DNA from: an uncultured Nitrososphaerota archaeon | Lineage (GTDB): Archaea; Thermoproteota; Nitrososphaeria; Nitrososphaerales; Gagatemarchaeaceae | Assembly (NCBI GenBank): GCA_963703285.1 | Contig: OY969807.1 | Coordinates: 320,001-384,000 of the forward strand | Reading direction: 5' to 3' | DNA length: 64,000 bases | Part shown: in pieces, positions 21,915 to 52,721 of the stretch | Layout: every line of letters starts with the position of its first letter | Numbering within the stretch: position 1 is the first letter of the stretch | Notes under the pieces: generated by a model | Databases searched by the model: none | Told to the model about the DNA's origin: nothing | Seen by the model: the letters and a program-made list of their open reading frames with translations, nothing else | Position numbers and translations under genes: made by a program

Positions 21915-22520
21915 ATGGCTAAGACCTACACTCTTCCGCCGCTGCCGTACGCCTACAACGCTCTCGAACCGTACATATCGCAGCAGATAATGACGCTGCA
22001 TCACGACAAGCACCACAACGCCTACGTGACGGGCGCGAACGCAGCCCTCGACAAGCTCGAGAAGGCGCGGGCGGGGCAGATGCAGATTGACGTGAGGGGC
22101 GTCCTCAGGGACCTGAGCTTCAACCTGGACGGCCACAAGCTCCACTCTCTCTTCTGGCCGAATATGGCCCCCGCAGGAAAGGGAGGAGGCAAGCCCGGAG
22201 GGAAGCTGGCCGACAAGATCGACGCCGACTTCGGGGGGTTCGACAAGTTCAAGCAGCAGTTCGGAGACGCGGCCAAGGCCGTGGAGGGTGTGGGATGGGC
22301 CCTCCTATGTTACGATTCTGAACTGGGTCAACTCATGATGACACAAGTCGAGAAACAAAACGTGATGCATCTGGCCGAACTCCCAATTCTGCTGGGCTGC
22401 GACGTTTTTGAACACGCATATTACTTGCAGTATCTGAACGACCGAGGAAAGTACGTCGACGCTTGGTGGAACGTGGTGAACTGGGACGACGTCGGGAAAA
22501 GGCTGGACAAAGTGAAGTAG
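21915..22520 (+). CDS. sod: Fe/Mn superoxide dismutase
   Basis: LPPLPYAYNALEP, HHDKHH, GH.LH..FW, DVFEHAYY motifs. The ORF-track ATG at 21849 lies inside the TIR. Confidence 0.95.
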   Translation: MAKTYTLPPLPYAYNALEPYISQQIMTLHHDKHHNAYVTGANAALDKLEKARAGQMQIDVRGVLRDLSFNLDGHKLHSLFWPNMAPAGKGGGKPGGKLADKIDADFGGFDKFKQQFGDAAKAVEGVGWALLCYDSELGQLMMTQVEKQNVMHLAELPILLGCDVFEHAYYLQYLNDRGKYVDAWWNVVNWDDVGKRLDKVK

Positions 22521-22766
22521 TCCAACAGCTAATCTGCTACCTAGTTCGGAAGCTCTCGGTAGGTCTCACGCAGTAGACCTTGCCGGCGACGAAACCGATC
22601 AAAAGCAGGGCCGGGGGGTCGAGAAGGAAACTCAGGGACTACACGCGCGCCTCTGGAGAGGACTTCGTATTTAGGCGCTCCCTCGTCAGAGTGAAGAAGC
22701 CCGACGTCAAGATTCCTGAGATGTCCGGCAGGCTATTTATAGCGAGTTCGACCCGTTCAAGAGCCG

Positions 22767-23690
22767 ATGGGCGAATTCACCATCAACACCGAGGGCGTCC
22801 CCTTCAGCCTCCGCTACACCCTCGAGAGCGGCCAGTCCTTCCGGTGGGCGCAGAGGGGCGACTGGTGGGTCGGCGTCGTGGGCCCGGGCGTCGTCCGCAT
22901 CAGGCAGGACGGCGCGTCCCTCGTCTGCGCCTCCAGCACCGAGGCCCTGGACTCCCACGCCCTCTTCGGCTACCTCGGCCTCGAGGACGACCTCGAGCGC
23001 ATCCTCGCCTCCATAATGAAGGACGAGAAGATAACCGAGGCCGTCCAGGCCCTCTACGGCCTGAGGCTTATGAAGCAGGATGTCTGGGAGTGCCTGCTCT
23101 CGTTCGCCCTCGCCCAGAACTCCAACATCCCGAGGATCAGGACGATGATATCGAGCCTCTGCGGGCTCCTGGGAGAGAGGGTCGATTTCGAGGGTGAGGC
23201 CTACTCGCTCTTCCCCACGCCGGAGTCGGTCGCGTCCGCCGAGGTCTCCGCGCTGACGGCCTGCGGCCTCGGGTACAGGGCGAGGTACGTGAAGGGCATA
23301 GCGGAGGCGGTCAACCTGGGCTATCGGAACCTCGACGAGCTGCGCCTCTACGACTACCCCAGATCGAAGGAGCTTCTCATGGAGGAGGTCCTCGGAAAGA
23401 AGACGCTGATGGGGATCGGTCCCAAGGTCGCCGACTGCGTCCTCCTCTTCTCGTGCGGCAAGTACTCTGCGTTCCCCATCGACGTCTGGATCGCCAAGGT
23501 TCTCGCGGGCTACTACCCCCACCTGTTCGCCCCGGAGCTGAAGGAGAAGCTCGCGTCAGCGGTCTCGGGCAAGAGCAGCCTCTCGGAGGCCACCTACGAG
23601 GCTCTCGCGGCCGACGCCAGGGGGTACTTCGGGGAGTTCGCGGGCTACGCTCAGCAGTACCTCTTCCACAACGAAAGGACGCGGACCTAG
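22767..23690 (+). CDS. 8-oxoguanine DNA glycosylase (OGG1-like HhH-GPD)
   Basis: TLESGQSFRW, GLGYRA, GIGPKVADC, FPIDVW, AGYAQQYLF motifs. Confidence 0.88.
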   Translation: MGEFTINTEGVPFSLRYTLESGQSFRWAQRGDWWVGVVGPGVVRIRQDGASLVCASSTEALDSHALFGYLGLEDDLERILASIMKDEKITEAVQALYGLRLMKQDVWECLLSFALAQNSNIPRIRTMISSLCGLLGERVDFEGEAYSLFPTPESVASAEVSALTACGLGYRARYVKGIAEAVNLGYRNLDELRLYDYPRSKELLMEEVLGKKTLMGIGPKVADCVLLFSCGKYSAFPIDVWIAKVLAGYYPHLFAPELKEKLASAVSGKSSLSEATYEALAADARGYFGEFAGYAQQYLFHNERTRT

Positions 23691-23694
23691 GGCT

Positions 23695-24126
23695 CTAGTC
23701 TTCCTTCGACTTTCGGGCCTTCTTCGGCCTAGACACCTTCTTCTTCTTCTCCTTCTCCTCTCGGGCCTCCTCGGCCTTCCGCGTCTTCGGCTCGGGGACG
23801 TACCACCCCCTCAGGCTGCTTACGTTCCTCTCGAGCACCGACCTCCTCTTGCTATCGACACGGACATCGTTCCTCCTCGCGAAGAGCACACCCACACCGG
23901 CGCTCTCGAGCTCGCCCAACGAGTAGCCCCGCGCGTCCCTCTCCTTCATCTCGCGATCGTGCCTCGCTAGGACGACCGGCGTCGGCGCGGGCCCCGGGTC
24001 CGCCCTCGCAGCCGTGACCTCGGCGGCGGGCTCCGCCTTCTCCTCCTTGGGCGCCTTCTTCCTCGCCGCGGCCCTCCTGGCGGACGTCTTCTTGGCGGGG
24101 GCCTTCTTCTCGTCCCTGTCGCTCAT
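23695..24126 (-). CDS. rpl13e: Ribosomal protein eL13-like with Lys/Ala-rich extensions
   Basis: RGYSLGEL..AG......VD.KRRS....NV..L motif. Confidence 0.75.
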   Translation of the reverse strand: MSDRDEKKAPAKKTSARRAAARKKAPKEEKAEPAAEVTAARADPGPAPTPVVLARHDREMKERDARGYSLGELESAGVGVLFARRNDVRVDSKRRSVLERNVSSLRGWYVPEPKTRKAEEAREEKEKKKKVSRPKKARKSKED

Positions 24127-24270
24127 GTTCTGGTGCCGCCCGGCCCGCGGACTTTAAAAGTCGTTCCCCGCGCCTCGTCCTGACGGCGGTCCTCGCCATC
24201 TGCGACCTCGCAGGCTGCGCCACGGAGACCTCGGAAACGCTTAAGAAATGCGGGGCGGGCGCGCCGTCGT

Positions 24271-24408
24271 CCCGGAGTAGCTCAGCCTGGTAGATCCTCG
24301 TGGGGAACCAACAGCTTCCGGCTGTAGCGGTCGGCCATCGGCTGACCCGATCAGCCTACTCAGGCCACAGTAACCGGAGTGTCGTCGGCTCAAATCCGAC
24401 CTCCGGGA
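24271..24408 (+). tRNA. tRNA-Tyr(GTA) with two BHB introns (24294-24312 in the D-arm; 24328-24372 at 37/38)
   Basis: Acceptor CCCGGAG/CTCCGGG, D-stem GCTC/GAGC after splicing, anticodon stem TCCGG/CCGGA, loop CT-GTA-G^A, T-stem GTCGG/CCGAC; central BHB helices TGGT/ACCA and CTGT/ACAG with 3-nt bulges; CCA not encoded. Confidence 0.92.
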
Positions 24409-24431
24409 CGTATTCCTATGTGACTAATCCA

Positions 24432-25340
24432 TCATTGCCAATTATGCCTACCAGTAATCTTTGCCCACCTTCGGTTTCGAAGTGTATAGCTCGAGAGAAA
24501 TGCGACGTATCGACCCTTGAGAGGAACCTCGTTGATTATTGCAATCATGTCGTCGAGTTTGTCCTTCTTGCTGGGAACCGAGAACCCCACGACTGAATGG
24601 TAACGAAAAGCGTTCTGGATGCCGTCAATTCTGATCTGGGATACCTCGTGCCTCCTCGTGAAGGTCTTGCCGCGGCTAGTCATTGCCTCGCCAATCTTGT
24701 GAGTTTTGGCCAGACGTGACTCGATACCCAGACCCGTAAGGAAATCGCTCACCAGCGCCAAGTAGTCCAAATTCGTGTTTGCCGCTCCTATCTCGATTCC
24801 ACTGAACAACTGTTTCTTGTGATTGAGCTTGGGCGAGGCGAAGCCCTCGGCATCGAAGAAACCACGGAGAAAATCGCTTGGAAATGATTCGATCAACTTC
24901 GAGAATTCGTGAATGGGCTGTTGCAGAAAATCATAGAGAACCGCAGAATCGTAGCTGACGGAATAGAATCCTCCGTCTACTGTCACGGTCTTCAGGGTTG
25001 CCCCAAGAACCTGCGCGACCAATTCGTTAAGCAGATTTGCAAATGCTGAATCTGCAAGATTGAACCTCACCCTCTTGTCTTTAGGTCCGGCTGTCCTTCC
25101 ATCCCCAAGATACGCGCCGACGAGGTAGGACAGATCCGGCCTCGGCGTGAGGTCAGGACTATAGACGGTCCTCGAAGGCCGGTTAACCCTGAACCAGTAG
25201 CTCACGTCGCGCCTGCTGATGCCGAGACTTTGCGCAATGTCCCTGATTCCGAGGCCTTTCGACCTCAACTCGTGGACCTTAGAATACAGCTCAACTCTCT
25301 CCTCGAGAGGCCTATGCCTGTAGATTCTCGGCGTCCCCAC
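24432..25340 (-). CDS. Free-standing double-motif LAGLIDADG endonuclease with N-terminal HTH
   Basis: LSYLVGAYLGDG and FLRGFFDAEG motifs; HTH GIRDIAQSLGISRRDVSYW; lower GC than neighbours. Confidence 0.9.
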   Translation of the reverse strand: MGTPRIYRHRPLEERVELYSKVHELRSKGLGIRDIAQSLGISRRDVSYWFRVNRPSRTVYSPDLTPRPDLSYLVGAYLGDGRTAGPKDKRVRFNLADSAFANLLNELVAQVLGATLKTVTVDGGFYSVSYDSAVLYDFLQQPIHEFSKLIESFPSDFLRGFFDAEGFASPKLNHKKQLFSGIEIGAANTNLDYLALVSDFLTGLGIESRLAKTHKIGEAMTSRGKTFTRRHEVSQIRIDGIQNAFRYHSVVGFSVPSKKDKLDDMIAIINEVPLKGRYVAFLSSYTLRNRRWAKITGRHNWQ

Positions 25341-25443
25341 ATCCTGAGAGCATTGCCGCTCTCATAAGGGCCACCCGAGTATTCGTCCCTCGTCCCTTCA
25401 CTGGAACGATTAAAGCCACATCGTCCGTGCACCCGGCTCGGCA

Positions 25444-26700
25444 TTGAAGCTAAGCCTGGGCGGGAACCTCGCGCACCACAGGGACTTCGCGAGGCTCTGG
25501 CTCGGCGAGACGATAAGCTCATTCGGCGCGCAGTTCAGCTCCATCGCCATCCCCGCTCTCGCCATACTCCCCCCGTTCAACGCGCCTCCCCTCTACGTGG
25601 GCCTACTCACGTCCCTGGCGATCTTGCCCTACCCCCTCTTTGGCCTCTTCGTGGGCGTCTGGGTCGACCGGTTCAGGAAGCGGAGGATAATGGTCGCCTG
25701 CAACGTCGGGAGGATGGCATCGCTCGCCACGATACCGATAGCCGCCGCTCTGGGCCGACTCACACTCGACCAGCTCTTCGTGGTCGCCTTCGTCACAGGT
25801 GTCTTCTCGGTCTTCTTCGACATCTCATACCAGGCGTTCCTGCCTATTCTCATCGAGAGGAAGGACCTGATCGAGGGGAACCAGAAGCTCCAGGTGAGCG
25901 CCTCGGGGGCGTCGGTGGCGGGGCCGCCCGCCGCTGGCTTCGTATACGGCCTGATTGGTGGCGCCCTCACGTGCCTTGGCGACGCCATCGGCTATGCCAT
26001 GGCCGCGCTTGCGCTGCTCGACATCAGGCGGGTCGAGGAGAAGCCGAAGGCCCCCCGCCGCGACTTCTTCCTGGAGATGAGGGAGGGGCTCCACTCGGTG
26101 CTCTCGAACCGCCTGCTCTGGACCATCGCCGGGAGCACGGCCACGAGCAACCTAGGCTCGTACATGGTGGGAACTCCCCTGTACATCTTCGTGCTCAGGG
26201 CGCTCCACCTGTCTGTGTTTGACTATGGGATTATCGGCGGGTTCGGGGCGCTGGGCTTCGTCACCGGCGCGATCGTCGCGGCGAGGTTTACTCGAGTGTT
26301 CGGGCTCGGGAGGACCCTCGCGGTCTCCGTCTCGGTTGCGGGCCTCGCCGTCCTCTATCCGTTTATGAGGTTCACATATCCCATCGTCTTCGCGTCCCTC
26401 ATCGCGTTCATCATAGGGACGAGCTCTCCCATCTACAACATCGGCCAGGTCAGCCTGAGGCAGGCGATAACCCCCAACAGGCTCCAGGGCCGGATGAACG
26501 CGACCATGAGGGTAATAGTCTGGGGGACCATCCCTGTGGGTTCGATCCTGGGCGGCTATCTCGGGGGGGCCATCGGGCTTGTCGACACGATGTACCTGGG
26601 CGGGGCCGTGGCCGCAGCGGCGGGCCTGTGGATAGCGCTCGGACCGGTGGTCCGGCTGAGGACGCAGCCAGAGCCTCTCGAGGAACCGCCCGGCTCCTAA
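25444..26700 (+). CDS. MFS transporter
   Basis: 12-TM pattern, GVWVDRFRKRRIM motif A, LQGRMNA. Confidence 0.9.
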   Translation: MKLSLGGNLAHHRDFARLWLGETISSFGAQFSSIAIPALAILPPFNAPPLYVGLLTSLAILPYPLFGLFVGVWVDRFRKRRIMVACNVGRMASLATIPIAAALGRLTLDQLFVVAFVTGVFSVFFDISYQAFLPILIERKDLIEGNQKLQVSASGASVAGPPAAGFVYGLIGGALTCLGDAIGYAMAALALLDIRRVEEKPKAPRRDFFLEMREGLHSVLSNRLLWTIAGSTATSNLGSYMVGTPLYIFVLRALHLSVFDYGIIGGFGALGFVTGAIVAARFTRVFGLGRTLAVSVSVAGLAVLYPFMRFTYPIVFASLIAFIIGTSSPIYNIGQVSLRQAITPNRLQGRMNATMRVIVWGTIPVGSILGGYLGGAIGLVDTMYLGGAVAAAAGLWIALGPVVRLRTQPEPLEEPPGS

Positions 26701-26762
26701 GGGACTCCGTCCGTGCGGAACTCATTTAAGCAGAGAACGGGGCCGCGGCCACAGCAAGCAGA

Positions 26763-27620
26763 ATGGCTTCGAAGGCCCTGATTGTCGGACTGGTCTCCCT
26801 CGTCGCAGGAGCCTCGATAGCGTTCTTCAACATGTTCAGGTGGTCATCCGCCCAGGACTCCATTGGCTACGCCGCGAAGGACCCCGGGGCCGTGGTTCTC
26901 GAGTTCTACCTTGCTCAGGCCCTCTCCACGGTCCTTGTGGTCGTTGGGCTTTACGTCGTCTACAAGTTCATCCTCACGAGGCGCGGGGCGGCGAGCCCCA
27001 CCATAAGGTCGGTCATGGGCGAAGCGCTGAGCTCCAGAAGGGCGCTACGGATTGCGACCGTCGTCGCAATCCTTTATGGCATCATCTATGCGTTCTTCTC
27101 GAGCCTGCTGACCTTTCAGCCGACCGTGGATTTCGCCAAGGCCTACGGTGTCACCCAGCCGAGTTGGGTCTACTTGACTTGTTGCGGCGACACGGGCACA
27201 GTCCCCAAGCTGGTGGTCTACCTGTCTCCTTGGCTGCACCTGGGGATGGTGATCCTGCCACTCACCCTCCTCTTCGTCTTCGTCGTACCCCTCCTCTTGG
27301 GGTTCAACGTCGCGCTCAGCTACTACGCCTTCAGGCAATCGTCGTTTCCCATGTCGGAGCGCTGGATTCTGGGCTCGGGGGCCATCGTGGGCCTCTTCAC
27401 TGCTTGCCCGACGTGCGCAGGGCTCTTCCTCGCCAGCTCCATCGGCGGGATCGGCACTACGCTCGCCATCGCCCTCGCACCCTACCAGCTCCTCTTCGTC
27501 GCCGTAACCATCCCCGTCCTCCTCGTAGGCCCGTTTCTCACCGCCCTGACCGTCAAGCGGTCATACGAGGCCTCGTGCAGGGTCCCCGGCGCGCCCGCCA
27601 CAGGGAAGGTGCGGGCCTGA
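26763..27620 (+). CDS. Membrane protein with CCG and CPTC motifs
   Basis: Multiple TM helices; Cys motifs; upstream of the heme o/a synthases. Confidence 0.7.
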   Translation: MASKALIVGLVSLVAGASIAFFNMFRWSSAQDSIGYAAKDPGAVVLEFYLAQALSTVLVVVGLYVVYKFILTRRGAASPTIRSVMGEALSSRRALRIATVVAILYGIIYAFFSSLLTFQPTVDFAKAYGVTQPSWVYLTCCGDTGTVPKLVVYLSPWLHLGMVILPLTLLFVFVVPLLLGFNVALSYYAFRQSSFPMSERWILGSGAIVGLFTACPTCAGLFLASSIGGIGTTLAIALAPYQLLFVAVTIPVLLVGPFLTALTVKRSYEASCRVPGAPATGKVRA

Positions 27621-27675
27621 TACAGTTAAATCGCCTTCCGGAGGGCTCCGCCAGATTCAAAGGACCGTATTGTGA

Positions 27676-28536
27676 ATGACGCTTAGGGACTACCTGCGCC
27701 TCGTCAAGCCGAGGATCATCCCGCTCCTGGTGCTCGTCGCTCTGGCCTCCGCAATAATCGCCGGGAGGTCGATCCCCTCAGCGCGGACCCTGGCGGGTCT
27801 GGTCGCCGGGGGGACGTTCACCTCTGCGGGGGCGCTGGCGACGAACAGCTACCTCGAGATCGGGGTCGACTCCATGATGAAGCGCACGAAGGGCAGACCC
27901 CTGCCCACCCGGCAGATACCCAAGTCGCACGCGCTCGCCTTCGCCGTCGCCCTCCTCGCCCTCGGGATCCTGGTGGCCTTCCTCACGCTGAACGTCTACG
28001 CGACGGTCTTCATCGCGCTGGGGGCCCTCGTCTACATAGAGATCTACACCATCTGGCTGAAGCCGCGCACGACGTGGAACATCGTGCTCGGCGGCTTCGC
28101 CGGCAGCTGCGCCGCGCTCGCAGGTTGGTACGCAGTCACCTTCGCCGACCCGCTCATAGCGTGGGTGCTCGCGGCGCTCGTCTTCGTCTGGACCCCGAGT
28201 CACTTCTGGTCGCTCGCCGTGATAACGGAGTCGGACTACTCGGCCGCCGGGATACCCATGCTCCCCTCCGTCGTCGGCAAGAAGAGGGCCGCGCAGTTCA
28301 TAGTCGCCAACACGCTGCTCCTCATCCCCATCAGCCTCCTCTTCTACCTCTACCTCTCCGGGACGGGGGGCATAGTCTACCTCGCCGGCGCAGTCATCTT
28401 CGACGGCGGCCTCCTCGCCACGAACATCAAGCTGCTCCTCGCTCCGACCAAGGAGAACGCCTTCCTCGCGTTCAAGTTCTCCAGCCCTTACCTCGCGGTG
28501 ATCTTCGTCCTCGGCTGCGTCGCGGCGATCCTCTAG
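27676..28536 (+). CDS. ctaB: Heme o synthase (protoheme IX farnesyltransferase)
   Basis: LVKPRI, D.MMKRTKGRPLP, YTIWLKPRT, WTPSHFW, DY..AGIPMLP motifs. Confidence 0.92.
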   Translation: MTLRDYLRLVKPRIIPLLVLVALASAIIAGRSIPSARTLAGLVAGGTFTSAGALATNSYLEIGVDSMMKRTKGRPLPTRQIPKSHALAFAVALLALGILVAFLTLNVYATVFIALGALVYIEIYTIWLKPRTTWNIVLGGFAGSCAALAGWYAVTFADPLIAWVLAALVFVWTPSHFWSLAVITESDYSAAGIPMLPSVVGKKRAAQFIVANTLLLIPISLLFYLYLSGTGGIVYLAGAVIFDGGLLATNIKLLLAPTKENAFLAFKFSSPYLAVIFVLGCVAAIL

Positions 28537-28577
28537 AAAGTTATAACTAATCTGCCGGGGGCGCGGCCGAGACGGCC

Positions 28578-29072
28578 ATGAGCCTGGGGAAGTATCTCGT
28601 CTACGCAACGATACTCTCGACCTTCGTCCTGATAGTCTGGGGGGCGTACCTCACCGCAGGCAACTACGGGGGCGACTGCGGGACTAGCTCCGGCCTCGTC
28701 AGCGGCGACTGGCCGTTCTGCAACGGGTCCCTCGCGATACCCAACCCCGCCGTCAACTACGGCGCGCTCGTGGAGTACATCCACAGGACGCTCAGCGTGG
28801 TGACGACGGTCTTCCTCGTCGTCACGCTGGTGGTGGTCTGGAGGATGAAGCCGCGGCCGGTCGAGCCGGCCAGGGCCCTGCTGCTCGCCATGTTCCTCCT
28901 GCTCGTCCAGATAGCGCTCGGGGACTTCGTGATAAACTCCAACCTCAACTCCGTCGTCACTGCGATCCACCTCGCCAACGCGACAGCGCTCTTCGCGGTC
29001 ATTGTCTTCGCCGGGACCCTGATGTACGTGCGCGAGAGGGTCCAGACGCAGCCCGGTGTGACCGGAAAGTAG
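28578..29072 (+). CDS. ctaA: Short (4-TM) heme A synthase, COX15/CtaA family
   Basis: C......DWPFCNG, EYIHR, QIALG, AIHL motifs. Confidence 0.85.
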   Translation: MSLGKYLVYATILSTFVLIVWGAYLTAGNYGGDCGTSSGLVSGDWPFCNGSLAIPNPAVNYGALVEYIHRTLSVVTTVFLVVTLVVVWRMKPRPVEPARALLLAMFLLLVQIALGDFVINSNLNSVVTAIHLANATALFAVIVFAGTLMYVRERVQTQPGVTGK

Positions 29073-29099
29073 AAGGGCGCGAGAGCCCCTCCCGCCCGC

Positions 29100-29582
29100 A
29101 TGGCCGAGGGTCCCAAGTTCATCGCGGACGCCATGCTGGGGAGCCTCGCGAGGAAGCTCCGTATCTTCGGCTTCGACACGGTCTACTTCCGGGAGGGTCC
29201 AGACAGCGACCTCGAGCGCATCGCGAGGAGCGAGGGGAGGGTGATACTCACCTCCGACAGGGCCCTCCTGGAGCACTCGAGGCGGCGCGGCCTTAGGGCT
29301 CTCTGCGTTACAGGGAAGAGCGAGCGCGCGAGAATCGAGCGGCTCCGCGAGGAGGCCCGGGCCGCGGGGACGGAACTCAACCCTGGCGCGCCCCGGTGCG
29401 CCCTCTGCAACCGCGTCCTCGCTAGGGTCGCGAGGGCCGAGGTCGAGGCGGACCTCCCTAGCTCCATAGCGAGGCGCCACAGGCTCTACTTCAGGTGCAC
29501 CGGCTGCGACAAGTTGTACTGGAGGGGAAGGCACTGGTCGCGGCTGCGGGGCCTCTCGTCGCTGATGGCAGGGCGACAATAA
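29100..29582 (+). CDS. Mut7-C RNase-domain protein
   Basis: FIADAMLGSLARKLRIFGFDT, RC..CN, C..C.KLYWRGRH motifs. Confidence 0.9.
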   Translation: MAEGPKFIADAMLGSLARKLRIFGFDTVYFREGPDSDLERIARSEGRVILTSDRALLEHSRRRGLRALCVTGKSERARIERLREEARAAGTELNPGAPRCALCNRVLARVARAEVEADLPSSIARRHRLYFRCTGCDKLYWRGRHWSRLRGLSSLMAGRQ

Positions 29583-29613
29583 CAATTTATGCGGACTCCG
29601 GGTCGCCGCGTCC

Positions 29614-30216
29614 ATGGCCCTCACAGGTGAGCAGGGTGAGGAGATGGTCCGTCTCGCGAGGGCGACCGTCGACGCCTTCGTGAGGGGGGAGGATATAGCA
29701 GGCGCCTACGCGCCGACGGGGGACTTCCTGCAGGAATCGCGGGGGGCCTTCGTCACGTTGAAGCGGCAGGACGGCGAGCTCAGGGGCTGCATCGGTTTCA
29801 CCCAGCCAATAATGCAGCTCGGCGAGGCGATCAGGGAGGCCGCCATCAGGGCCGCGGCCTACGACCCCCGCTTCCCGAAGGTCGAGCCTTCAGAGCTCGA
29901 GGGGCTGCTCGTCGAGGTGAGCGCGCTCACCAGGCCAGAGAGGATAGCGGTCAAGTCCCCCAAGGAGCTTCCCAAGCACGTCCGCATAGGAGTGGACGGG
30001 CTGATAGTCAGCTCGTTAGTGACCAGCGGGCTGCTGCTGCCGCAGGTGGCGACGGAGTACAAGCTCTCCGCCGAGGACTTCCTCGTGCAGACGTGCCTGA
30101 AGGCGGGCCTTCCTCCCGACGCCTGGCTGACCGACAAGGTGAAGGTCGAGAGGTTCCAGGCCGAGGTCTTCTCAGAGACCTCGCCGAGGGGGAAGGTCAA
30201 GCGCGAGCTGGACTAG
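29614..30216 (+). CDS. AMMECR1-domain protein
   Basis: GAFVTL, LRGCIG, DPRF, GLLLPQV, CLKAG motifs. Confidence 0.92.
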   Translation: MALTGEQGEEMVRLARATVDAFVRGEDIAGAYAPTGDFLQESRGAFVTLKRQDGELRGCIGFTQPIMQLGEAIREAAIRAAAYDPRFPKVEPSELEGLLVEVSALTRPERIAVKSPKELPKHVRIGVDGLIVSSLVTSGLLLPQVATEYKLSAEDFLVQTCLKAGLPPDAWLTDKVKVERFQAEVFSETSPRGKVKRELD

Positions 30217-41799: not shown

Positions 41800-41874
41800 C
41801 TAACTTCCCGTCCTCCGCTTTCTCTTCTGGTAGGTCCTTATTGCGCGCAAGAGGTCTATCTTGCGGAAAGAGGG
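41800..41874 (-). pseudogene. Displaced duplicate of the uppS 3' end
   Basis: Translates PSFRKIDLLRAIRTYQKRKRRTGS* versus uppS PAFRKIDLLRAIRTYQKRKRRLGR*. Confidence 0.93.
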
Positions 41875-41889: not shown

Positions 41890-42022
41890 ATGAACATGAG
41901 TGTTCATAAGACCTAGGAAAGGAAATCCCTTGAGATAGAGGCCTTGGCCAAGCGAGGAGTAAAGGACTTTTCTCAGTGGGAACGCGCTTGGATTGGCGAA
42001 CTTGTCGCTGTTCAGGCGTTGA
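41890..42022 (+). pseudogene. Remnant ORF convergent on uppS, possibly a PD-(D/E)xK nuclease N-terminus
   Basis: MNMSVHKT*ERKSLEIEALAKRGVKDFSQWERAWIGELVAVQAL; internal TAG at 41914; 'GE..A...L' helix. Confidence 0.4.
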
Positions 42023-42814
42023 TCATCTACCTAGTCTTCGTTTCCGCTTTTGGTAGGTACGTATTGCGCGTAACAAATCAATTTTTCTAAACGCCGGCCA
42101 GTAGACGTCCATGAAGATTAGCTCGCTGTAGGCTCCCTGCCAGAGGAGGAACCCGCTCATCCTCTCCTCCCCCGAGGTGCGTATTATCAGGTCGGGCTCG
42201 GGGTTGGGCAGGTGGGATGTGTAGAGCCTACCGGCTATGGTGTCCTCTCCGATCCTCGAGGGGTCGAGCGTCCCATTCTTCACGTCCTCTGCTATCGACC
42301 TGACGACGTCCGTAATCTCGGCCCTCCCGCCGTAGGCTATGGCTATGTTCAGGAAGTGCCCGTCGTAGGCTGCGGTCCTCTCCTCCACCTCTCTCAGGAT
42401 GTCGAGGAGCGACTTGGGCAGGACGTCGAACTTGCCGATCCCCTTGACCCTCACCCTGTACTTGTAGATTCGTTCGTCCGTAAGCAGCTTCTGGAGCCTC
42501 TCCTCGATCAGCCTGAAGAGCTCCTGCACCTCCTCCGAGGTCCTCTGCAGGTTCTCGGTCGAGAGCACGTAGAGCGTTATCGATTTGATGCCGATCTCGT
42601 GGCACCAGTCGAGGAGCTTCTCGACGACGTCGGCCCCGTAGGCGTGCCCCGCGTCCACGGAGTACCTGCGGTCCTGCGCCCACCTCCTGTTGCCGTCGAG
42701 GATTATCCCGACGTGCCCCGGAATCGGGCCGTCCTCGACCTGCCAGCTCAGCCTGTTCTCGTAGAACCTGTACGCCCCGGTCGCCCTAAGCAGCCCGTCA
42801 AGCACTCGTGTCAC
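42023..42814 (-). CDS. uppS: cis-Polyprenyl diphosphate synthase
   Basis: HVGIILDGNRRWA, STEN..R, YGGR.EI, IIRTSGEER.SGFLLWQ..YSE motifs. Confidence 0.95.
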   Translation of the reverse strand: MTRVLDGLLRATGAYRFYENRLSWQVEDGPIPGHVGIILDGNRRWAQDRRYSVDAGHAYGADVVEKLLDWCHEIGIKSITLYVLSTENLQRTSEEVQELFRLIEERLQKLLTDERIYKYRVRVKGIGKFDVLPKSLLDILREVEERTAAYDGHFLNIAIAYGGRAEITDVVRSIAEDVKNGTLDPSRIGEDTIAGRLYTSHLPNPEPDLIIRTSGEERMSGFLLWQGAYSELIFMDVYWPAFRKIDLLRAIRTYQKRKRRLGR

Positions 42815-45758: not shown

Positions 45759-46922
45759 CCATGGCCACGGCGTTCCCCCCTCCGAGGCAGAGCGTGGCCA
45801 AGCCGAGCTTACCTCCCCTCCTCCTGAGCTCGTAGATCAGCGTCGTCAGAACCCTCGCGCCGCTCGCTCCGATGGGGTGGCCCAGGGCGACCGCGCCTCC
45901 GTTCACGTTGAACTTCTCCTCCGGTATCCCCAGCTCGTCCCTCACGACGATGGAGGCCGTCGAGTAGGCCTCGTTGTGCTCGAAGAGGTCGATCTCCTCT
46001 ACGGTGAGCCCGGTCTTGTTCAGAAGAGCCCTGACGGTCGGTATGGGAGCTTCCATGATGTCGGCCGGCTCGGTCCCGCCGGTGTGGTAGCCGATCACCT
46101 TCGCAATCGGCCTCAGCCCCATCTTCTCCGCCCTCTCCTCCGACGCGAGCACCAGAGCGGACGCGCCATCGGAGAGCTGCGATGAGTTCCCGGCCGTGAG
46201 CACGCCTCCCGGCTTGAACGCCGGCGGCAGCTTGGAGAGTCCCTCGACCGTTGTCTCCGGGCGTATGCACTCGTCGCGGGTGAGGATCTCTGACGCCGCG
46301 GGTCCTCCCTCCGAACTCACCTTGACGATCTCGTCGTCGAACCTCCCGGCCTTCTGCGCGGCGGCGGCCTTCATGTTGCTGGAGTATGCGAACCTGTCCG
46401 CCGCTTCCCTGGAGACGTGGTACTTCTCGGCGATCCGCTCGCCGGTCATGCCCATGTGATAGTTGTTGAAGGTCTCCCAGAGGCCGTCGTTCAGCATCGA
46501 ATCGACCAGGCGGGAGTCCCCGTACTTGCTGCCCCACCTCAGGTCCTTGACGAGGTACGGCGCGTTGCTCATGCTCTCCATCCCCGCGGCGACGACGAGC
46601 TGCGCGTCCCCCGCCTTGATGGCCTGGGCCGCAAGCATCGCCGCCTTGAGCCCGGAGCCGCAGACCTTGTTGACCGTGTACGAGCCGACCGTCACGGGGA
46701 CGCCCGCCCGTATCGCCGCCTGCCGCGCAGGGTTCAGCCCGGCCCCGGCCGGGAGCACCATCCCGGCAACGACCTCTTCGACGTCCGCCGGCTGCACGCC
46801 CCGCGCGATATCGCCTCCCTGACCACGATTTCGCCCAGCCGCGTCGCTGGGACCCGCACGAGGCTCTTACCGAACTTCCCTATCGGGGTTCTGCACGCAG
46901 ACAGGATGACCGGTTGGATCAT
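45742..46922 (-). pseudogene. Acetyl-CoA C-acyltransferase (thiolase) with a -1 frameshift near 46800 (pseudogene or sequencing error)
   Basis: RTPIGKF N-terminus in one frame, NKVCGSG, NEAY, GHPIGASG and CLGGG in another; adding one C (CGC GCG GGC GTG) joins them. Confidence 0.85.
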
Positions 46923-47017
46923 GATGACCGGTGCACCCTCCAGCTGGACCCGATAATAACGGGCGCGGTCGCACCACGGTCACGCTTATAAGGATGGCTG
47001 GATGAGCCATCCAGCTA

Positions 47018-47614
47018 ATGCAGGGCCCTGGCCTCGCGGGAAGCAGGAAGGTCGCCATCGTCTCCATGTTCACCGCGCTCGCCGTCGCGACCGACTACGC
47101 CATGCTGCCGCTGGCCAACGTCAAGCTGATGGACTCGGTAGTCTTCGTCTCCTCGCTGGCCTTCGGCCTCGAGGTCGGCGTCTCGGTCGGCGCGCTGACC
47201 TGGCTCGTCTACGGCGAGGTGAACCCCCTTGGCCCCGACGGCGGCGTCCTCCTCCTGGTCCTCATCGCGTCGGAGACCGTCTACGCGCTGCTCGGATACG
47301 GCGTGCGGCGGTTCTTCAATCCGGAGGCGTCGTCCATCCCCTCGAGGAGCCTGCTCTGGGGCTCGCTCGGTCTGATCGGAGCCTTCGTCTACGACCTTGT
47401 CACGAACGTCGTCCCGCCCCTCCTCTCCGGGACTTCGCTCGGCCACGCCGTCCTCTTCCTCGTCCCCGGCGCCCCCTTCATGCTCGCCCACGAGATAAGC
47501 GACTTTGTGTTCTTCTCCACCGTCGCGCCGGTGCTCTACGTGGCCATTCGCAAGGTAGCCAGGCGGCGTGGCTTCGTCGAGGTGAGGAGTCAGGTCCTCG
47601 ACGCGAAGCCCTGA
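47018..47614 (+). CDS. ECF transporter S-component-like membrane protein
   Basis: VAIVSMFTAL, P.ANVK and PF...H motifs; about six TM segments. Confidence 0.65.
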   Translation: MQGPGLAGSRKVAIVSMFTALAVATDYAMLPLANVKLMDSVVFVSSLAFGLEVGVSVGALTWLVYGEVNPLGPDGGVLLLVLIASETVYALLGYGVRRFFNPEASSIPSRSLLWGSLGLIGAFVYDLVTNVVPPLLSGTSLGHAVLFLVPGAPFMLAHEISDFVFFSTVAPVLYVAIRKVARRRGFVEVRSQVLDAKP

Positions 47615-48024
47615 ATGTCGTCTATCGAGCCGGTCCTCTGCCTCTTCGGTCTGAACTTCGCGGCCACCTCGCTCCCGACCCTGGCCCTTCCGATCAGCCT
47701 GTGGACGAGCCCGCCGCGCACGCCCTTGAACGTCACGAAGACGAAGGCGCCGTCTCCGCCTCCGGACGTGACCGCCTTCGCCCTCCCCACGCGCCCCACG
47801 CTCACGGCCCTGCTGATCTCGCCGTAGCAGAGCAGGCAGTACATCCTCAGCGGGATCCAGGTCTCCCCGCATCCGGGGCAGTAGCCCGCCAGTATCTTCC
47901 CGTCCGCCAGACCGCGAAGGAACTTCTCGCCCGCCACCCCGGCGGTGTACTCGTAATGGAAGGGGATGCTGTCAGCCCACTGCCTCACGCCCTTGACCGA
48001 GTCGAGCCTCTCCTCGATCGGCGT
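47590..48024 (-). CDS. Zn-ribbon/OB-fold (DUF35) protein; start uncertain (GTG 47988 or non-canonical about 48018-48024)
   Basis: YTAGVAGEKF, CPGC, P.RMYC..C, GSIDDI motifs. Confidence 0.85.
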   Translation of the reverse strand, partial: TPIEERLDSVKGVRQWADSIPFHYEYTAGVAGEKFLRGLADGKILAGYCPGCGETWIPLRMYCLLCYGEISRAVSVGRVGRAKAVTSGGGDGAFVFVTFKGVRGGLVHRLIGRARVGSEVAAKFRPKRQRTGSIDDIQGFASRT

Positions 48025-48027
48025 CCC

Positions 48028-48546
48028 CTACCGCCTCCCCCTCTTCGGCCTGAAGTACAGGATGTCGGTGATCGCACCTGCCCTCTCGCCGTCGGGCTTC
48101 CACACGGCCTCGACTTCCATCCCTACCTTCACCTTCTCCGGCCTCACCTCGCCCAGGAGGTGGAGGATCCCCATCATCGGCGACGCGCCTGCGATCTCAA
48201 CCACAGCGACCACTATCGGCTCCTCCCTCCTGCTGGCGTCCGAGTTCACGTAGGCTACCGAGTAGGTTACCACCCTCCCCGAGTCCTTCAGCCTGACCCA
48301 GCGGTCCGTCGGCCTGAAGCACCTCTCGCAGTACATCCTCGGGGGGACGAGCGTCCTCCCGCATCCGTCGCATTCCCTCCCCCAGACCTCCTTCTTCGCG
48401 AGCCCTGCGAGGAAGCGTGAGGTGGCTACCCCCGAGCTCCAGGCGTACCTGAGGTCGGTCTCGTACCTCGTGATGAGGTACCTGTGCCCTCTGGCCTCCT
48501 CCGGGGTGATCTCAACGCCCGGGTACCTCGAGATCTTCGAGCTCAA
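48028..48546 (-). CDS. Zn-ribbon/OB-fold (DUF35) protein
   Basis: CDGC, PPRMYCERC, GAITDI.YFRP motifs. Confidence 0.9.
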   Translation of the reverse strand: MSSKISRYPGVEITPEEARGHRYLITRYETDLRYAWSSGVATSRFLAGLAKKEVWGRECDGCGRTLVPPRMYCERCFRPTDRWVRLKDSGRVVTYSVAYVNSDASRREEPIVVAVVEIAGASPMMGILHLLGEVRPEKVKVGMEVEAVWKPDGERAGAITDILYFRPKRGRR

Positions 48547-48585
48547 CCCGGTCGTCAGCCGCTACCTGCGCTCATATAAGCTGAG

Positions 48586-50538
48586 TCACTTCTTCATCTC
48601 CCGTGCGAAGCTGACGAAGTACTCCATCGACGAGGGGTTCTCGAGGGAGTCCGGGTTGTAGACCTTGGCGGGGTCGGCCCCGAGGAGGATTCTCCGCACG
48701 GGAACCTCGACCTTCTTCCCGTTGAGCGTCCTCGGGACCTCCTTCACGGCGAAGATGTCGTCGGGGACCATCCTAGGCGAGAGCTCCGCCCTTATCCTCT
48801 GCCTTATCTCCGCCCTGAGGGGCTCGTCGAGCGCGGCGTCCTCTCGCGGGACCACGAAGAGGGGCATGTACGAGCGGCCGCCCAGGAACTCCATGTCGAC
48901 GACGAGGCTGTCGGCGACGGCCGGAATCGCTTCGACGACTCGGTAGAGCTCGCTCGTCCCCATCCGTATCCCCATCCTCTTTATCGTGGCGTCCGACCTC
49001 CCGAAGATGACGCAGGTGCCGTCCTCGTTGATCTGGATCCAGTCGCCGTGCCTCCACTTCCCCGGGAAGAAGGTGAAGTAGCTCTCGCGGTACCTCTCGC
49101 CGTCACTGTCCCCCCAGAGGTAGAGGGGCATGGAGGGCATCGGCTCCTCTATGACGAGCTCCCCCATCTGTCCGACGACCGTCCGCCCGATCTCGTCGTA
49201 GGCGGCTACGTCGGCACCCAGGCATCTGCACTGGATCTCCCCCGACCTGACGGGGAGCACGGGGCACCCCCCCAGGAAGGCCGTCACAAGGTCAGTCCCG
49301 CCGCTTATCGACGCCAGCCAGACGCTCTCTTTCACGTGGGAGTAGACCCACTCGAACCCGTCGGCGGTGAGCGCCGAGCCGGTCGAGCCGAAGCCCTTCA
49401 GCTGCCTCAGCGAGTGCGTGGAGATCGGGTCGACGCCGGTCTTCATCTGGGCTCCCACGAACGCGGCGCTCGCCCCAAGGAATGTCATCTCCGCCTCGTC
49501 GGCGAGGTCCCAGAGTGCGTCCGCTGTGGGAAAGAAGGGGTCTCCCTCGTAGAGTACTATCGTGGAGCCGAGCAGAAGGGACGAGACGAGGTAGTTCCAC
49601 ATCATCCACCCCGTGGAGGTGTACCAGAACATCTCGTCGTCCGGCCCCAGGTCGTTGTGAAGGGCGAGCGCCTTGAGGTGCTCCAACAGGATCCCTCCGT
49701 GACCGTGCACCATGGCCTTGGGGAGGCCGGTCGTCCCAGAGGAGTAGACTATCCACAGCGGGTGTTCGAAGGGGACCTGCTCGAAACGCATCTTCGATGC
49801 TGACCTGGTCAGGTCGTCCCAGTTGTGCACGCGGTCGATACCCCCGGTGTCCCGCCCGACCATCACCGTGTGCCCGATGGTCGGGATCGACTCCCTGACC
49901 TGCCCGACGACCTCGGCCTTCTGGATCCACTTCCCCCTGTAGCTGTAGCCGTAGGAACCGATGAGGACCTTCGGCTCTATCTGCTTGAATCGGTCCACCG
50001 CGCTGAGGACACCGAAGTCGGGCGCGCAGCTGGACCAGACCGCACCGATCGACGAGCAAGCCAGGAGGGCGATCACCGCCTCGGGGACGTTCGGGAGGTA
50101 CGCGGCCACCCTGTCACCCTTCTCCACCCCCATGTCCCTGAGCGACTCGGCGAAGGCCGCGGTCTTCCTCTCGACCTCCGACCAGGAGACGCTGCGTAGA
50201 CCCTCCGTCTCGGTCTTGGCGAGGATCGCGGTCTTCGCCGGATCCCTCGCAGCGAAGAAGTGCTCCGCATAGTTGAGCGCGCCGCCGGGGAACCACTTCG
50301 CCCCAGGCATCGTCCTGCTCTCGAGGGGGGTCGTGTACGGCGAGCTCCACTTCACACCGAAGAACTTCGAGAGCGACTCCCAGAAGCTCTCCAGGTTGTC
50401 GACGGACCACCTCCAAAGCTCTCCATAGCTACCCGTCCTGACTCCGCATTCGCGCTCCAGCCAGCGCGAGAACACCGTGATGTTGGCTTTGTCGATGGTC
50501 GCCTGCGAGGGCTTCCAGAGAGTCTTCGGCTCAGCCAT
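48586..50538 (-). CDS. Acetoacetate--CoA ligase
   Basis: LWKPS, WFPG..LNYAE, SSGTTGLPK, GWMMWN, SGGTD, WRHGD motifs; ATG 50538. Confidence 0.92.
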   Translation of the reverse strand: MAEPKTLWKPSQATIDKANITVFSRWLERECGVRTGSYGELWRWSVDNLESFWESLSKFFGVKWSSPYTTPLESRTMPGAKWFPGGALNYAEHFFAARDPAKTAILAKTETEGLRSVSWSEVERKTAAFAESLRDMGVEKGDRVAAYLPNVPEAVIALLACSSIGAVWSSCAPDFGVLSAVDRFKQIEPKVLIGSYGYSYRGKWIQKAEVVGQVRESIPTIGHTVMVGRDTGGIDRVHNWDDLTRSASKMRFEQVPFEHPLWIVYSSGTTGLPKAMVHGHGGILLEHLKALALHNDLGPDDEMFWYTSTGWMMWNYLVSSLLLGSTIVLYEGDPFFPTADALWDLADEAEMTFLGASAAFVGAQMKTGVDPISTHSLRQLKGFGSTGSALTADGFEWVYSHVKESVWLASISGGTDLVTAFLGGCPVLPVRSGEIQCRCLGADVAAYDEIGRTVVGQMGELVIEEPMPSMPLYLWGDSDGERYRESYFTFFPGKWRHGDWIQINEDGTCVIFGRSDATIKRMGIRMGTSELYRVVEAIPAVADSLVVDMEFLGGRSYMPLFVVPREDAALDEPLRAEIRQRIRAELSPRMVPDDIFAVKEVPRTLNGKKVEVPVRRILLGADPAKVYNPDSLENPSSMEYFVSFAREMKK

Positions 50539-50630
50539 GTGATGAAGAGTAGTAGGAGGGGGGCGGTATAAGCTCGCTGGAGTGAGCCGCCCAGGGGTGG
50601 GGCTGATATGCTCGGACTGACTCTCGACGC

Positions 50631-51569
50631 GTGAAGAAGAATCCCGCGCCGACACTCGAGCGAATCAAATCCTACGAGATGCTCCGGAGGCTGGTCGACG
50701 AAGGGGTCGATGACGGGCCGGCGGCGATTGTTATCAGGCTTCGAGAGGCAGGATTGCAGGTTCCTTCCAGGGGTACAGTCCAACGCTGGGTCCACAAGAG
50801 GAGTTCTCCCTCGACGAGCATGAGAACGTTCGAGCCAGTGCCTTCCAATGAATTGTCGTTCTTCGTTGCAGCATGGATTGGTGACGGCTGGGCGGACGAG
50901 GCCGACGGAGGGAAGAGGATGCGGCTGAAGGTGAGGTCAAGATCGTTTGCGGAGGAGTTCGCTCGCTGCGCAAGCGTAATCCTCTCAAAGTCGAAGCCTT
51001 ATTGCGTCTGGACGACGGAGGACGAAGGTGGCAAGTGGTACAACGTCAAAGTAACGAGCCTCAGATTGTACGAATTCGTCACCCGGCCTCTCACAAGTTT
51101 GAAGAGTTTCATATCTGAAAATCCAGAGGGATTTCTACGGGGCTTCTTCACGGCCGAAGGTTGTCCCTCAATCAACATCTCCAAGCTCCCTTCGGAATCC
51201 GGCAAGAAACTGCGCCTTGACATAGCTGCCGTTGTCTCGAATTGCGACATTGAACTTCTCGAGTACTCTAGGGACTTGCTTAGCAAACTCGGATACCATC
51301 CAGGGAAAGTTCGCCTGAATCATCCTAAAGGGAAGAAGACCAATCTGTCAGTAGCCTCGAAGGACAATTACCTGGTTACTATGGGAAGATTTGACGAGCT
51401 CTCTGCCTTCGCCGATGAAGTGGGCTTTGCGGATTCGGAGAAGAACGCGAAACTGCACGAGGCATTGGAACTTGTGGGCGAGGCGGGGTCATTTCGTGCC
51501 GCCGAGCGCTGGCTGGAACTTTACGTGAAGGTCGGCGGCAAGTGGACCCGAAAGGACTCACCTACGTAA
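50631..51569 (+). CDS. Free-standing double-motif LAGLIDADG endonuclease with HTH-like N-terminus
   Basis: LSFFVAAWIGDG and FLRGFFTAEG motifs; VPSRGTVQRW; lower GC; overlaps the thiolase stop by 12 bp. Confidence 0.9.
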   Translation: MKKNPAPTLERIKSYEMLRRLVDEGVDDGPAAIVIRLREAGLQVPSRGTVQRWVHKRSSPSTSMRTFEPVPSNELSFFVAAWIGDGWADEADGGKRMRLKVRSRSFAEEFARCASVILSKSKPYCVWTTEDEGGKWYNVKVTSLRLYEFVTRPLTSLKSFISENPEGFLRGFFTAEGCPSINISKLPSESGKKLRLDIAAVVSNCDIELLEYSRDLLSKLGYHPGKVRLNHPKGKKTNLSVASKDNYLVTMGRFDELSAFADEVGFADSEKNAKLHEALELVGEAGSFRAAERWLELYVKVGGKWTRKDSPT

Positions 51570-52721
51570 GGTTATGACTGTGCCACATTGGAGTAAGTCC
51601 CCCCAGGCCTGCGCGAGGCCCCTCTCCGCCTTCTTCTTGATCTGCCTCTTCCCCGCCTCGCCCTTCAGCTGCCAGTAGACCTCGCAGACCTTCATCATCC
51701 CGGCCGCGGCGATGGGATTCCCCACGCCCAGCAGCCCGCCGGACGGGTTGATCGGGAACTCGCCTCCTCTCTGGGTCACGCCCTCCTTGGTCAGCCTGGG
51801 CGCCTCCCCCTTCTTCGCCAGCAGCAGGCCCTCCATGTGGTGAAGCTCCTTGTAGTCGAAGGGGTCGTAGACCTCGGCGAAGTCCAGGCTCTTCATCGGG
51901 TCCTCTATCTTCGCCATCTTGTAGGCCATCCTCGCGGCGCTCTCGACGTACGACGGGTAGTACAGGTCCCTGTTGGTCCAGTACTGCGTGTCGACGTTCC
52001 AGCCCACGCCGTCGATCCAGACCGGGTCCTTGGTGTACCTGCGGGCCACCTCCTCCGAGGCTAGGATGACCGCTGCCGCGCCGTCCGAGGGGGGCGAGAC
52101 GTCGTACCGCTTCACGGGCGAGACTATCCTCTCGCTGTTCATCACGTCCTCGACCGTTATCTTCGCGGCGAGCTGCGCGCACGGGTGGTCGAGCGCGTTC
52201 ATCTTGTTCTTGACTGCGACCAGTGCGATCTCCTCCTCCGTCACGTGGTGGACGTGCATGTAGCGCCTCATCTCGAGCGCGAAGATCCAGAGGAGTGTCA
52301 CCCCCAGGGGCCTCTCCGTGGTGTGGTCGAAGATGGACCAGAAGGCGGACTGGGGGTGCGGGTGCAGCGGCGACATCTTCTCCTCGGCGACGGCCAGGCA
52401 GGTGTCGAAGAGCCCCGAAGCGACGTGCCACCATGCGCCGATGGGGGTGAAGACGCCCGTTCCTCCCCCGACATAGACCCTGCTCGTCGGCCTCCCAATC
52501 CCCCCAGCGCCCTCGAGCAGGTACTCGCCCTTCATGTGGACGCCGTCGAATGCGTCTGGCGCGCTCCCCATCACCACGGATTCGACGTCCTTCATAGTCA
52601 TCCCGGCCGAGTCGAGCGCCATCCTCGACGCCTCGAACGAGAGCTCCCTACCCGTCTCCAGCAGCCGCCGCCTGAAGAGGGTCATCCCAGCCCCGATGAC
52701 CGCGACCCTTCTCTTGATCAT
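51558..52721 (-). CDS. Thiolase-family (SCP-x/lipid-transfer type) protein
   Basis: VAVIGAG, SDGAAAVILA, EVYDPF, NPSGGL motifs; ATGA overlap at 52718-52721. Confidence 0.9.
   Translation of the reverse strand: MIKRRVAVIGAGMTLFRRRLLETGRELSFEASRMALDSAGMTMKDVESVVMGSAPDAFDGVHMKGEYLLEGAGGIGRPTSRVYVGGGTGVFTPIGAWWHVASGLFDTCLAVAEEKMSPLHPHPQSAFWSIFDHTTERPLGVTLLWIFALEMRRYMHVHHVTEEEIALVAVKNKMNALDHPCAQLAAKITVEDVMNSERIVSPVKRYDVSPPSDGAAAVILASEEVARRYTKDPVWIDGVGWNVDTQYWTNRDLYYPSYVESAARMAYKMAKIEDPMKSLDFAEVYDPFDYKELHHMEGLLLAKKGEAPRLTKEGVTQRGGEFPINPSGGLLGVGNPIAAAGMMKVCEVYWQLKGEAGKRQIKKKAERGLAQAWGDLLQCGTVITLRR

Follow-up and report, generated by a model that had tools for sequence, protein, structure and literature searches.

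A 64,000-nucleotide (nt) stretch of the chromosome of an uncultured Nitrososphaerota archaeon (hereafter the window, positions 320001-384000 of a genome that forms one contig of 2.25 Mb with 61% G+C) probably harbours homing-endonuclease genes (HEGs) of the LAGLIDADG family that are free-standing and belong to a guild, seen at different stages of a cycle of invasion, decay and loss. Each HEG lineage keeps to a single site immediately past the end of a conserved gene, with which the HEG is convergent; the sites are the ends of uppS, of a thiolase-like gene that precedes an acyl-CoA synthetase (ACS) gene, of tRNA-Tyr and, in relatives, of sod, and elsewhere in the genome there are further sites at tRNA-Cys, tRNA-Ser, one further tRNA and PCNA. 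We favour the reading as homing genes because the sites are fixed, empty alleles are clean, the states of decay are graded and the codon usage is foreign, the last being conspicuous since the G+C content at third codon positions (GC3) of host genes lies near 0.85-0.93. A first-pass annotation of this DNA had proposed a recurrent layout at four loci (uppS, thiolase, tRNA-Tyr and sod), in which a conserved gene ends in a tail of foreign codons and is followed by a convergent nuclease gene, intact, decayed or lost, and then by a relic of the original tail; it had ascribed this layout to intron-less homing. That idea is partly supported, and is better supported by the comparison of relatives than it was by the evidence first offered for it.

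Genes were placed with the help of lists of open reading frames (ORFs), GC3, Pfam and a simple gene caller based on codon usage. Relics and nuclease remnants were scored by local alignment against shuffled sequences (300 shuffles, with 500 for tRNA-Tyr and 200 for one sod test), and the drop in GC3 at gene tails was ranked genome-wide, over 1717 genes for a 23-codon tail and over 1783 genes for a 12-codon tail. The labels on protein clusters related to the genes of this genome read "Thaumarchaeota archaeon" or "Nitrososphaerales archaeon".

The full architecture of recoded tail, convergent nuclease remnant, relic, and empty and occupied alleles is confirmed at uppS, a cis-prenyltransferase gene at 42023-42805 on the reverse strand (Pfam Prenyltransf, E 1.2e-74), and the claim of the first-pass annotation therefore stands here in all its parts. 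The final 23 codons of uppS (42026-42094, reverse strand), which we regard as an element-borne recoded tail, have a GC3 of 0.30, compared with 0.88 in the 170 codons before the 30-codon tail, and this drop ranks 2/1717 in the genome. A second copy of the 23-residue tail starts 151 nt beyond the stop codon, at 41803-41871 on the same strand, and is itself followed by a stop codon; its GC3 is 0.70, and its alignment score of 107 was reached by 0/300 shuffles, the mean of which was 37 and the maximum 52. The element tail and this relic of the native tail are identical at 45/69 nt, and where their codons differ 14 of the differences are synonymous and 3 non-synonymous. Placed between the two tail copies on the opposite strand (41917-42030, forward) and convergent with uppS is a remnant, the first ~38 codons, of what is predicted to be a small single-motif I-CreI-like LAGLIDADG gene; the homologous ORF is longer in relatives, and the remnant matches the copy at locus L008 with an E-value of 3.5e-11 and 76% identity.

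Presence/absence polymorphism at this site is seen among genomes of the genus. An insert with a relic is found at four loci, those of this genome (relic score 107), G009 (100), G014 (108) and G002 (57); the full inserts of the latter three are ~555 nt long, and that of this genome has an internal deletion of ~335 nt. The nuclease ORFs of G009 and G014 are frameshifted, each at different points. Four further genomes (G010, G001, G004 and G015) carry untouched, empty alleles without a relic, in which the convergent stops of uppS and the downstream ZIP-transporter gene are 6-9 nt apart and the tail GC3 is 0.67-0.83. The relic of this genome matches the native tail better than the element tail does in G010 (54 vs 45 of 69 nt) and in G001 (54 vs 48). 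Loci with aberrant tails (L021 and L032/L035) were left out of these counts, and no relic was found at 7 genus loci of other synteny or at 12 loci of other genera. At one locus from another genus (L089) an uninterrupted ORF of 141-152 residues (GC3 0.39) lies directly after uppS and convergent with it; here too the uppS tail is recoded (GC3 0.48), a relic is present (score 90, reached by 0/300 shuffles) and the element tail shares its AT-rich start with the uppS elements of the genus.

The small uppS-linked ORF has no direct Pfam match, a sequence-profile search of solved structures with it returned chance matches only (superoxide reductase, E 0.5) and the L089 ORF, used in a word-index search for homologs, returned one protein only. 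With a profile search against 1.84 billion proteins, 235 matches at E<=1e-3 were obtained. When the L089 query was aligned with 45 picked matches the consensus resembled the textbook LAGLIDADG helix, with G-E-G nearly invariant across the 46 sequences, of which 18 match Pfam LAGLIDADG_1 (PF00961) and 13 match LAGLIDADG_3 (PF14528). The structure model of the ORF has a pLDDT of 92.5, and all 41 matches listed from a comparison with the PDB (of 50 with E<=0.001) are LAGLIDADG enzymes, the best among those listed being I-MsoI, I-CreI and I-CvuI with TM scores of 0.5-0.58. An earlier model made from 6 sequences was discarded for its poor quality (pLDDT 47). Because the profile matches, the consensus and the structural matches all lead to LAGLIDADG enzymes, the ORF is assigned, on the strength of its model, to the single-motif I-CreI-like type. 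I-CreI, I-MsoI and I-CvuI are homodimeric, single-motif enzymes encoded by group I introns, and the modelled ORF is like them in fold and size; it differs in having 11-18% identity to them and in lying outside any intron, Rfam having given no family match in the window at its gathering score.

These observations would be accounted for if the enzyme cuts an HEG-free allele in or near the end of the conserved gene and recombination with a chromosome that bears the HEG then mends the break, the repair copying the HEG together with flanking sequence of the donor. At uppS the insertion point is within the coding sequence, so the element must carry a gene tail of its own; the native tail would be displaced downstream as the relic, and the element-borne tail would be synonymously recoded, presumably to escape cutting. 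An insertion just past a stop codon or a tRNA would produce no relic, and a short recoded stretch at the junction would be all that is expected. The HEG would then decay, the states observed being intact, frameshifted, reduced to an internally deleted remnant, and gone. Within this scheme we infer the cleavage of empty alleles, the immunity of recoded tails and the transfer of DNA between cells; what the sequences themselves show is the family to which the genes belong, their fidelity to sites, the polymorphism of presence and absence with untouched empty sites, the series of states of decay and the duplicated tail at uppS.

A layout of this kind is known from fungal mitochondria. According to one report (PMC3630166), mobile endonuclease ORFs (mORFs) replace the C-termini of atp6 of Allomyces macrogynus and of atp6, atp9, cox2 and nad3 of a Glomus species, a LAGLIDADG or GIY-YIG ORF standing at the 3' end of the gene along with a C-terminal copy of foreign origin; as described there, changes in the copy are mostly synonymous, the native C-terminus is duplicated downstream and close relatives lack the insert. 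The uppS architecture, with its foreign in-frame tail, nuclease ORF, duplicate of the native tail and insert-free relatives, is the layout given in that account. There are differences, in that the host DNA here is an archaeal chromosome and not an organelle, the uppS ORF is convergent with its host gene whereas the mORF is described as being in phase and in the same direction, and the tail duplicate occurs at one examined site only, uppS, where the ORF copy of this genome is itself a remnant. By analogy, the genes described here are best read as a likely archaeal-chromosome counterpart of the fungal mORFs.

The second site lies between the thiolase-like gene (51558-52721, reverse strand; Pfam Thiolase_N and Thiolase_C_1) and the ACS gene. 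A nuclease gene, LAG2 (50631-51569, forward strand; 312 amino acids (aa), GC3 0.65), is placed between the thiolase stop and the ACS start, is convergent with thiolase and overlaps its end by 12 nt in antisense. Its product has an N-terminal helix-turn-helix (HTH) domain followed by two LAGLIDADG motifs, the first ending in GDG and the second in AEG, and matches Pfam LAGLIDADG_3 (PF14528) with 37.5 bits against a cut-off of 22.5; homologs in public records are named "LAGLIDADG family homing endonuclease" or "intein-encoded DNA endonuclease-like". The final 12 codons of thiolase (51561-51596, reverse strand) have a GC3 of 0.42, a drop that ranks 19/1783, whilst over 23 codons the drop ranks merely 102/1717. 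The intact convergent LAGLIDADG gene and the recoded end that were claimed for this locus are thus both present.

The thiolase/ACS junction was compared across 19 genus loci, of which three were dropped, L052 for having its stop codon outside the contig and L050 and L053 for truncated alignments. Among the 16 readable junctions, seven are empty, the ACS start lying 0-6 nt past the thiolase stop, and six are occupied by a convergent LAG2 homolog within an insert of ~0.9-1.1 kb; the other three have short spacers of 46-156 nt, one of which looks, by eye, like the far end of a degraded insert. The occupied alleles form a decay series, with four full-length ORFs, one with a single break and one in at least four pieces. 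Mean tail GC3 is 0.65 in occupied and 0.83 in empty alleles. In three occupied alleles (this genome, L038 and L051) a TATA-like box stands ~27-40 nt before the ACS start codon, in this genome at 50565-50572 on the reverse strand, ~27 nt before the start and within the inserted segment, and these same three alleles share a changed ACS N-terminus. It may be that ACS, separated from its operon by the insert, receives a promoter from that insert. Over 49800-52600, the contigs of four metagenome runs from soil contain no empty thiolase allele and no joints; their cover is too thin and fragmentary, and therefore they are not evidence either way on empty thiolase alleles.

The third site is a tRNA-Tyr(GUA) gene with two introns at 24271-24408 on the forward strand, read directly from the sequence as an acceptor stem, a split D arm, an anticodon stem, a 45-nt insertion and a T arm. 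One intron, of ~19 nt, is in the D arm and the other, of 45 nt, is at the canonical 37/38 position. ARAGORN and Rfam reported no tRNA in the window, nor did ARAGORN with its intron option on 24200-24450; at the gathering score Rfam gave no family match anywhere in the window, and a more permissive scan covered 22000-26000 only. The finders miss the gene because it has two introns: ARAGORN recovers a tRNA with exactly the ends 24271-24408 when 17-20 nt are taken out of the D arm, and names it Asn(gtt) because it places the 45-nt intron inside the anticodon. Splice sites of archaeal tRNA introns are defined by the bulge-helix-bulge rule, under which a four-pair CTGT/ACAG helix between two 3-nt bulges gives the anticodon GUA. 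There is no other tRNA-Tyr in the ARAGORN list of the genome, and the 5' and 3' parts of the gene are present at 15/15 genus loci compared. Judged by its bases, then, the feature that the first-pass annotation had named as a tRNA-Tyr is a real gene.

Many tRNA genes of the genome are found only with the intron option. The D-arm and anticodon-loop introns of tRNA-Tyr are present in all the genes read, and a third intron, in the T loop, occurs in three of the seven relatives read base by base, at L078 (G033), L080 (G012) and L081 (G004). In the acceptor stem of this genome (24271-24277 and 24401-24407) two base pairs differ from those of the seven relatives, and at both the change on one strand is compensated by a change on the other.

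The nuclease gene beside tRNA-Tyr, LAG1 (24432-25340, reverse strand; 302 aa, GC3 0.63), is intact and convergent with the tRNA, as had been claimed, with a gap of 23 nt. Like LAG2 it encodes an HTH domain and two motifs ending in GDG and AEG, and it matches LAGLIDADG_3 with 32.4 bits against the same cut-off; the description of the nucleases at these loci as HTH-LAGLIDADG proteins holds for these two and does not hold for uppS, the nuclease of which is small and single-motif. A gene of the LAG1 type is present at tRNA-Tyr in 4/15 genus loci, and 11 loci are without one. The homologs in G014, G003 and G012 (loci L076, L079 and L080; scores 735-841) are at the same tRNA-Tyr site regardless of which gene lies on the far side.

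Site fidelity is also seen outside the window. Five HTH-LAGLIDADG paralogs occur in the genome as a whole, 25-43% identical to one another and all convergent with the end of a conserved gene, their partners being thiolase in the case of LAG2 and four tRNA genes in the case of the others. Besides LAG1 at tRNA-Tyr, two are convergent with tRNA-Cys and tRNA-Ser, at distances of 81 and 38 nt respectively, and the fifth abuts an intron-bearing tRNA that was read by eye only. When homologs were sought in the genus 30 loci were returned, of which 28 were checked, L146 and L148 being second pieces of split genes; ARAGORN places a convergent tRNA within 300 nt in 19/28 of them and a co-directional tRNA in none. 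Ten of the 19 are tRNA-Cys and six are tRNA-Ser, and the type of tRNA tracks the lineage of the nuclease.

Full-length ORFs with an N-terminal HTH domain, found by tRNA genes, might suggest that these proteins have been domesticated as host regulators or repair factors, comparable to the WhiA-like descendants of homing endonucleases, and the tRNA-Cys-linked lineage is indeed present in about half of the genomes of the genus. We consider this very improbable, as presence is patchy, many of the homologous copies carry in-frame stops or are split, and GC3 is low at 0.61-0.77 compared with ~0.88 for the host; furthermore the acidic residues are kept in both motifs.

Beyond uppS and thiolase, a third protein gene of this genome is convergent with a LAGLIDADG gene. 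PCNA (locus L116, C1:1701802-1704311) is separated by 14 nt from a double-motif LAGLIDADG gene of 579 residues with a long N-terminal extension, and its final 23 codons have a GC3 of 0.39 against 0.86 in the body, a drop that ranks 9/1717. A fall in GC3 at the tail therefore accompanies the convergent nuclease in all three protein genes so arranged (uppS 2/1717, thiolase 19/1783 and PCNA 9/1717), which is what the first-pass annotation had expected of genes next to nucleases.

The 3' ends of tRNA genes are classic sites of integration, and the uppS duplication could in principle be an attL/attR pair with the tRNA-adjacent genes as the remains of integrated elements, left behind by an integrase. 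The genome does contain something of this sort, as elsewhere in the chromosome a direct repeat of the final 110 nt of the EF-2 gene encloses a toxin-antitoxin cassette. That repeat is near-identical (105/110) whereas the uppS duplicate is synonymously recoded (45/69), no repeats flank LAG1 or LAG2, and the inserts are one gene long (0.5-1.1 kb), the ORF lists showing no other long ORF inside them, although no integrase profile was searched. On this evidence an origin from integrase-driven elements has hardly any probability. The EF-2 locus itself (L122, C1:2035981-2038521) has its second tail copy 727 nt downstream, unrecoded, and the genes between the copies encode a MazE-like antitoxin and a PIN-domain toxin, with no homing-type nuclease among them.

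The fourth site is known from relatives. In this genome sod, encoding an Fe/Mn superoxide dismutase (21915-22520, forward strand; Pfam Sod_Fe_N and Sod_Fe_C), is separated from OGG by a 246-nt spacer (22521-22766) without a nuclease gene, relic or detectable remnant; the spacer has no similarity to a sod-linked nuclease gene (61/200 shuffles) or to the corresponding intervals of relatives. The absence of a nuclease had been noted in the first-pass annotation, and this is borne out; the recoded sod tail that it described is not, as tail GC3 is 0.83-0.87 and the tail ranks 1501/1783 for its drop. There is an internal dip of GC3 to 45-60% at about codons 120-180 (~22275-22455), and it is common to the orthologs of G012, G002 and G033. 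In six of eight loci tested (G001, G002, G005, G010, G014 and G033) a convergent HTH-LAGLIDADG gene lies directly after sod, and one of these was checked against Pfam (E 6e-07); at a further eight loci merely 59-117 nt separate sod from OGG. Since six relatives carry a nuclease gene there, the end of sod is a nuclease target site in the genus. Immediately upstream of sod, where the G+C content is lower (0.55-0.58), there is a TnpB/Cas12f-like gene (20644-21816, reverse strand; Pfam Cas12f1-like_TNB, E 9.8e-24).

The fixed sites with intact, broken, remnant and cleanly empty alleles across the genus bear out the proposal that these genes spread and then decay. The main rival holds that they are old vertical insertions, which entered each site once in the ancestor of the genus and have since undergone only decay and loss, with no current homing. 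Many nuclease copies are broken, same-site copies are far more diverged (36-70% identical) than host genes (76-91%), and the insert-bearing uppS alleles are grouped in one poorly resolved clade, all of which would fit such a history. Scar-free empty alleles, with 0-9 nt between the flanking genes, are nevertheless found beside occupied ones. In the thiolase tree G033 (occupied) and G003 (empty) are sisters with support of 100/99, and in the uppS tree the empty alleles of G010 and G001 stand beside the occupied allele of G014 with support of 97/96, so that repeated exact deletions would be needed if no homing took place. The intact uppS element of another genus, with the same AT-rich tail start, is also a poor fit to one entry per site within this genus. 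We therefore regard old insertion without homing as unlikely, and the homing-gene reading as the probable one.

Several observations weigh against that reading and have to be set beside it. Relics were expected at all four loci, and of these the uppS relic alone stands out from shuffled sequences: the candidate relic at thiolase is not significant (score reached by 12/300, 48/300 and 79/300 shuffles) and none was found at seven other related loci, the candidates at tRNA-Tyr (tRNA or flank repeated beyond LAG1; 323/500) and sod (286/300, 291/300 and 229/300) are likewise not significant, no relic of the PCNA tail was found, and flanking repeats were not found at LAG2. At uppS the order of resemblance to the native tail is reversed in two empty alleles, the relic matching fewer of the 69 positions than the element tail in G004 (51 vs 53) and in G015 (49 vs 54). 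The contrast in thiolase tail GC3 between occupied and empty alleles is modest (one-sided p 0.034) and the genomes are not independent. Occupancy requires 4 changes on the 16 tips of the uppS tree, and 191/500 shuffles need as few or fewer; on the 14 tips of the thiolase tree (the partial genes L051 and L054 left out) it requires 5, equal to the median of shuffled labels, and both are single-gene trees in which many forks are unresolved. Between genera the uppS HEG has 59% aa identity and uppS itself 71-72%, so recent transfer is not required. Three other LAGLIDADG ORFs of this genome are co-directional with their neighbours. Finally, the relatives are metagenome-assembled genomes that are 54-96% complete, and some of the frameshifts could be assembly errors.

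Free-standing HEGs are textbook cases in phages and organelles, and among the enzymes of T4-like phages SegF is reportedly one that stands alone and takes part in intronless homing. In two reports (PMC2330249, PMC2790892) the same is described for MobE and for SegB, the latter within a tRNA gene cluster. The genes of this genome are like those in being stand-alone genes between conserved genes, in some cases, as with SegB, among tRNA genes, and the spread described for the phage HEGs, by cutting the HEG-free genome and co-converting flanks, is the spread that we would infer here. In those accounts the phage enzymes are GIY-YIG or HNH proteins acting in mixed infections, whereas the genes here are LAGLIDADG genes in a cellular chromosome, for which, unlike T4-like phages, a route of DNA exchange must be assumed. 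The LAGLIDADG enzymes encoded by archaeal introns and inteins, such as I-DmoI and the ORFs of group I introns in thaumarchaeal rRNA genes, belong to the same protein family and have archaeal hosts (PMC6125680, PMC3384342). They differ in that the genes described here stand beside their target genes without a surrounding intron or intein, and the HTH-LAGLIDADG genes encode an extra N-terminal HTH-like domain.

What these loci add is that the life cycle of free-standing HEGs can also be followed in the chromosome of an archaeal cell, with several independent lineages, clean empty sites and lineage-specific fidelity to particular tRNAs. In PMC13619312 free-standing HEGs are said to be generally confined to intergenic targets; the uppS lineage enters coding sequence, which it does by bringing a recoded gene tail. 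A literature search, with supplementary files outside its reach, turned up no description of elements of this kind in the chromosomes of archaea. It is possible, if doubtful, that at least seven free-standing LAGLIDADG homing lineages, each keeping to a site of its own (at tRNA-Tyr, tRNA-Cys, tRNA-Ser, thiolase/ACS, sod, uppS and PCNA), form an active community in the chromosomes of soil Nitrososphaerales; their scattered distribution would then directly record frequent exchange of DNA between chromosomes, with recombination, in an archaeal group that is uncultivated. If the enzymes are active they would provide a natural marker of how genes flow among uncultivated soil archaea, would be a source of new rare-cutting nucleases with target sites that can already be inferred, and would explain local anomalies of codon usage at the ends of genes. 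The intron-rich tRNA genes of this lineage, such as tRNA-Tyr with its two or three introns, may also have been shaped in part by nuclease pressure, because an intron splits the target site of a nuclease.

Two further observations concern genes outside the sites described above. The luciferase-like monooxygenase gene at 53950-54939 (forward strand) has a GC3 drop of -0.55 over its last 12 codons, which ranks 12/1783, and no adjoining nuclease gene was noticed. At locus L091 in G031 a single-motif LAGLIDADG ORF of 179 residues (1243-1779, reverse strand) runs antisense through a tRNA identified by Rfam (1296-1367, forward strand), and a second tRNA lies 90 nt beyond the first.

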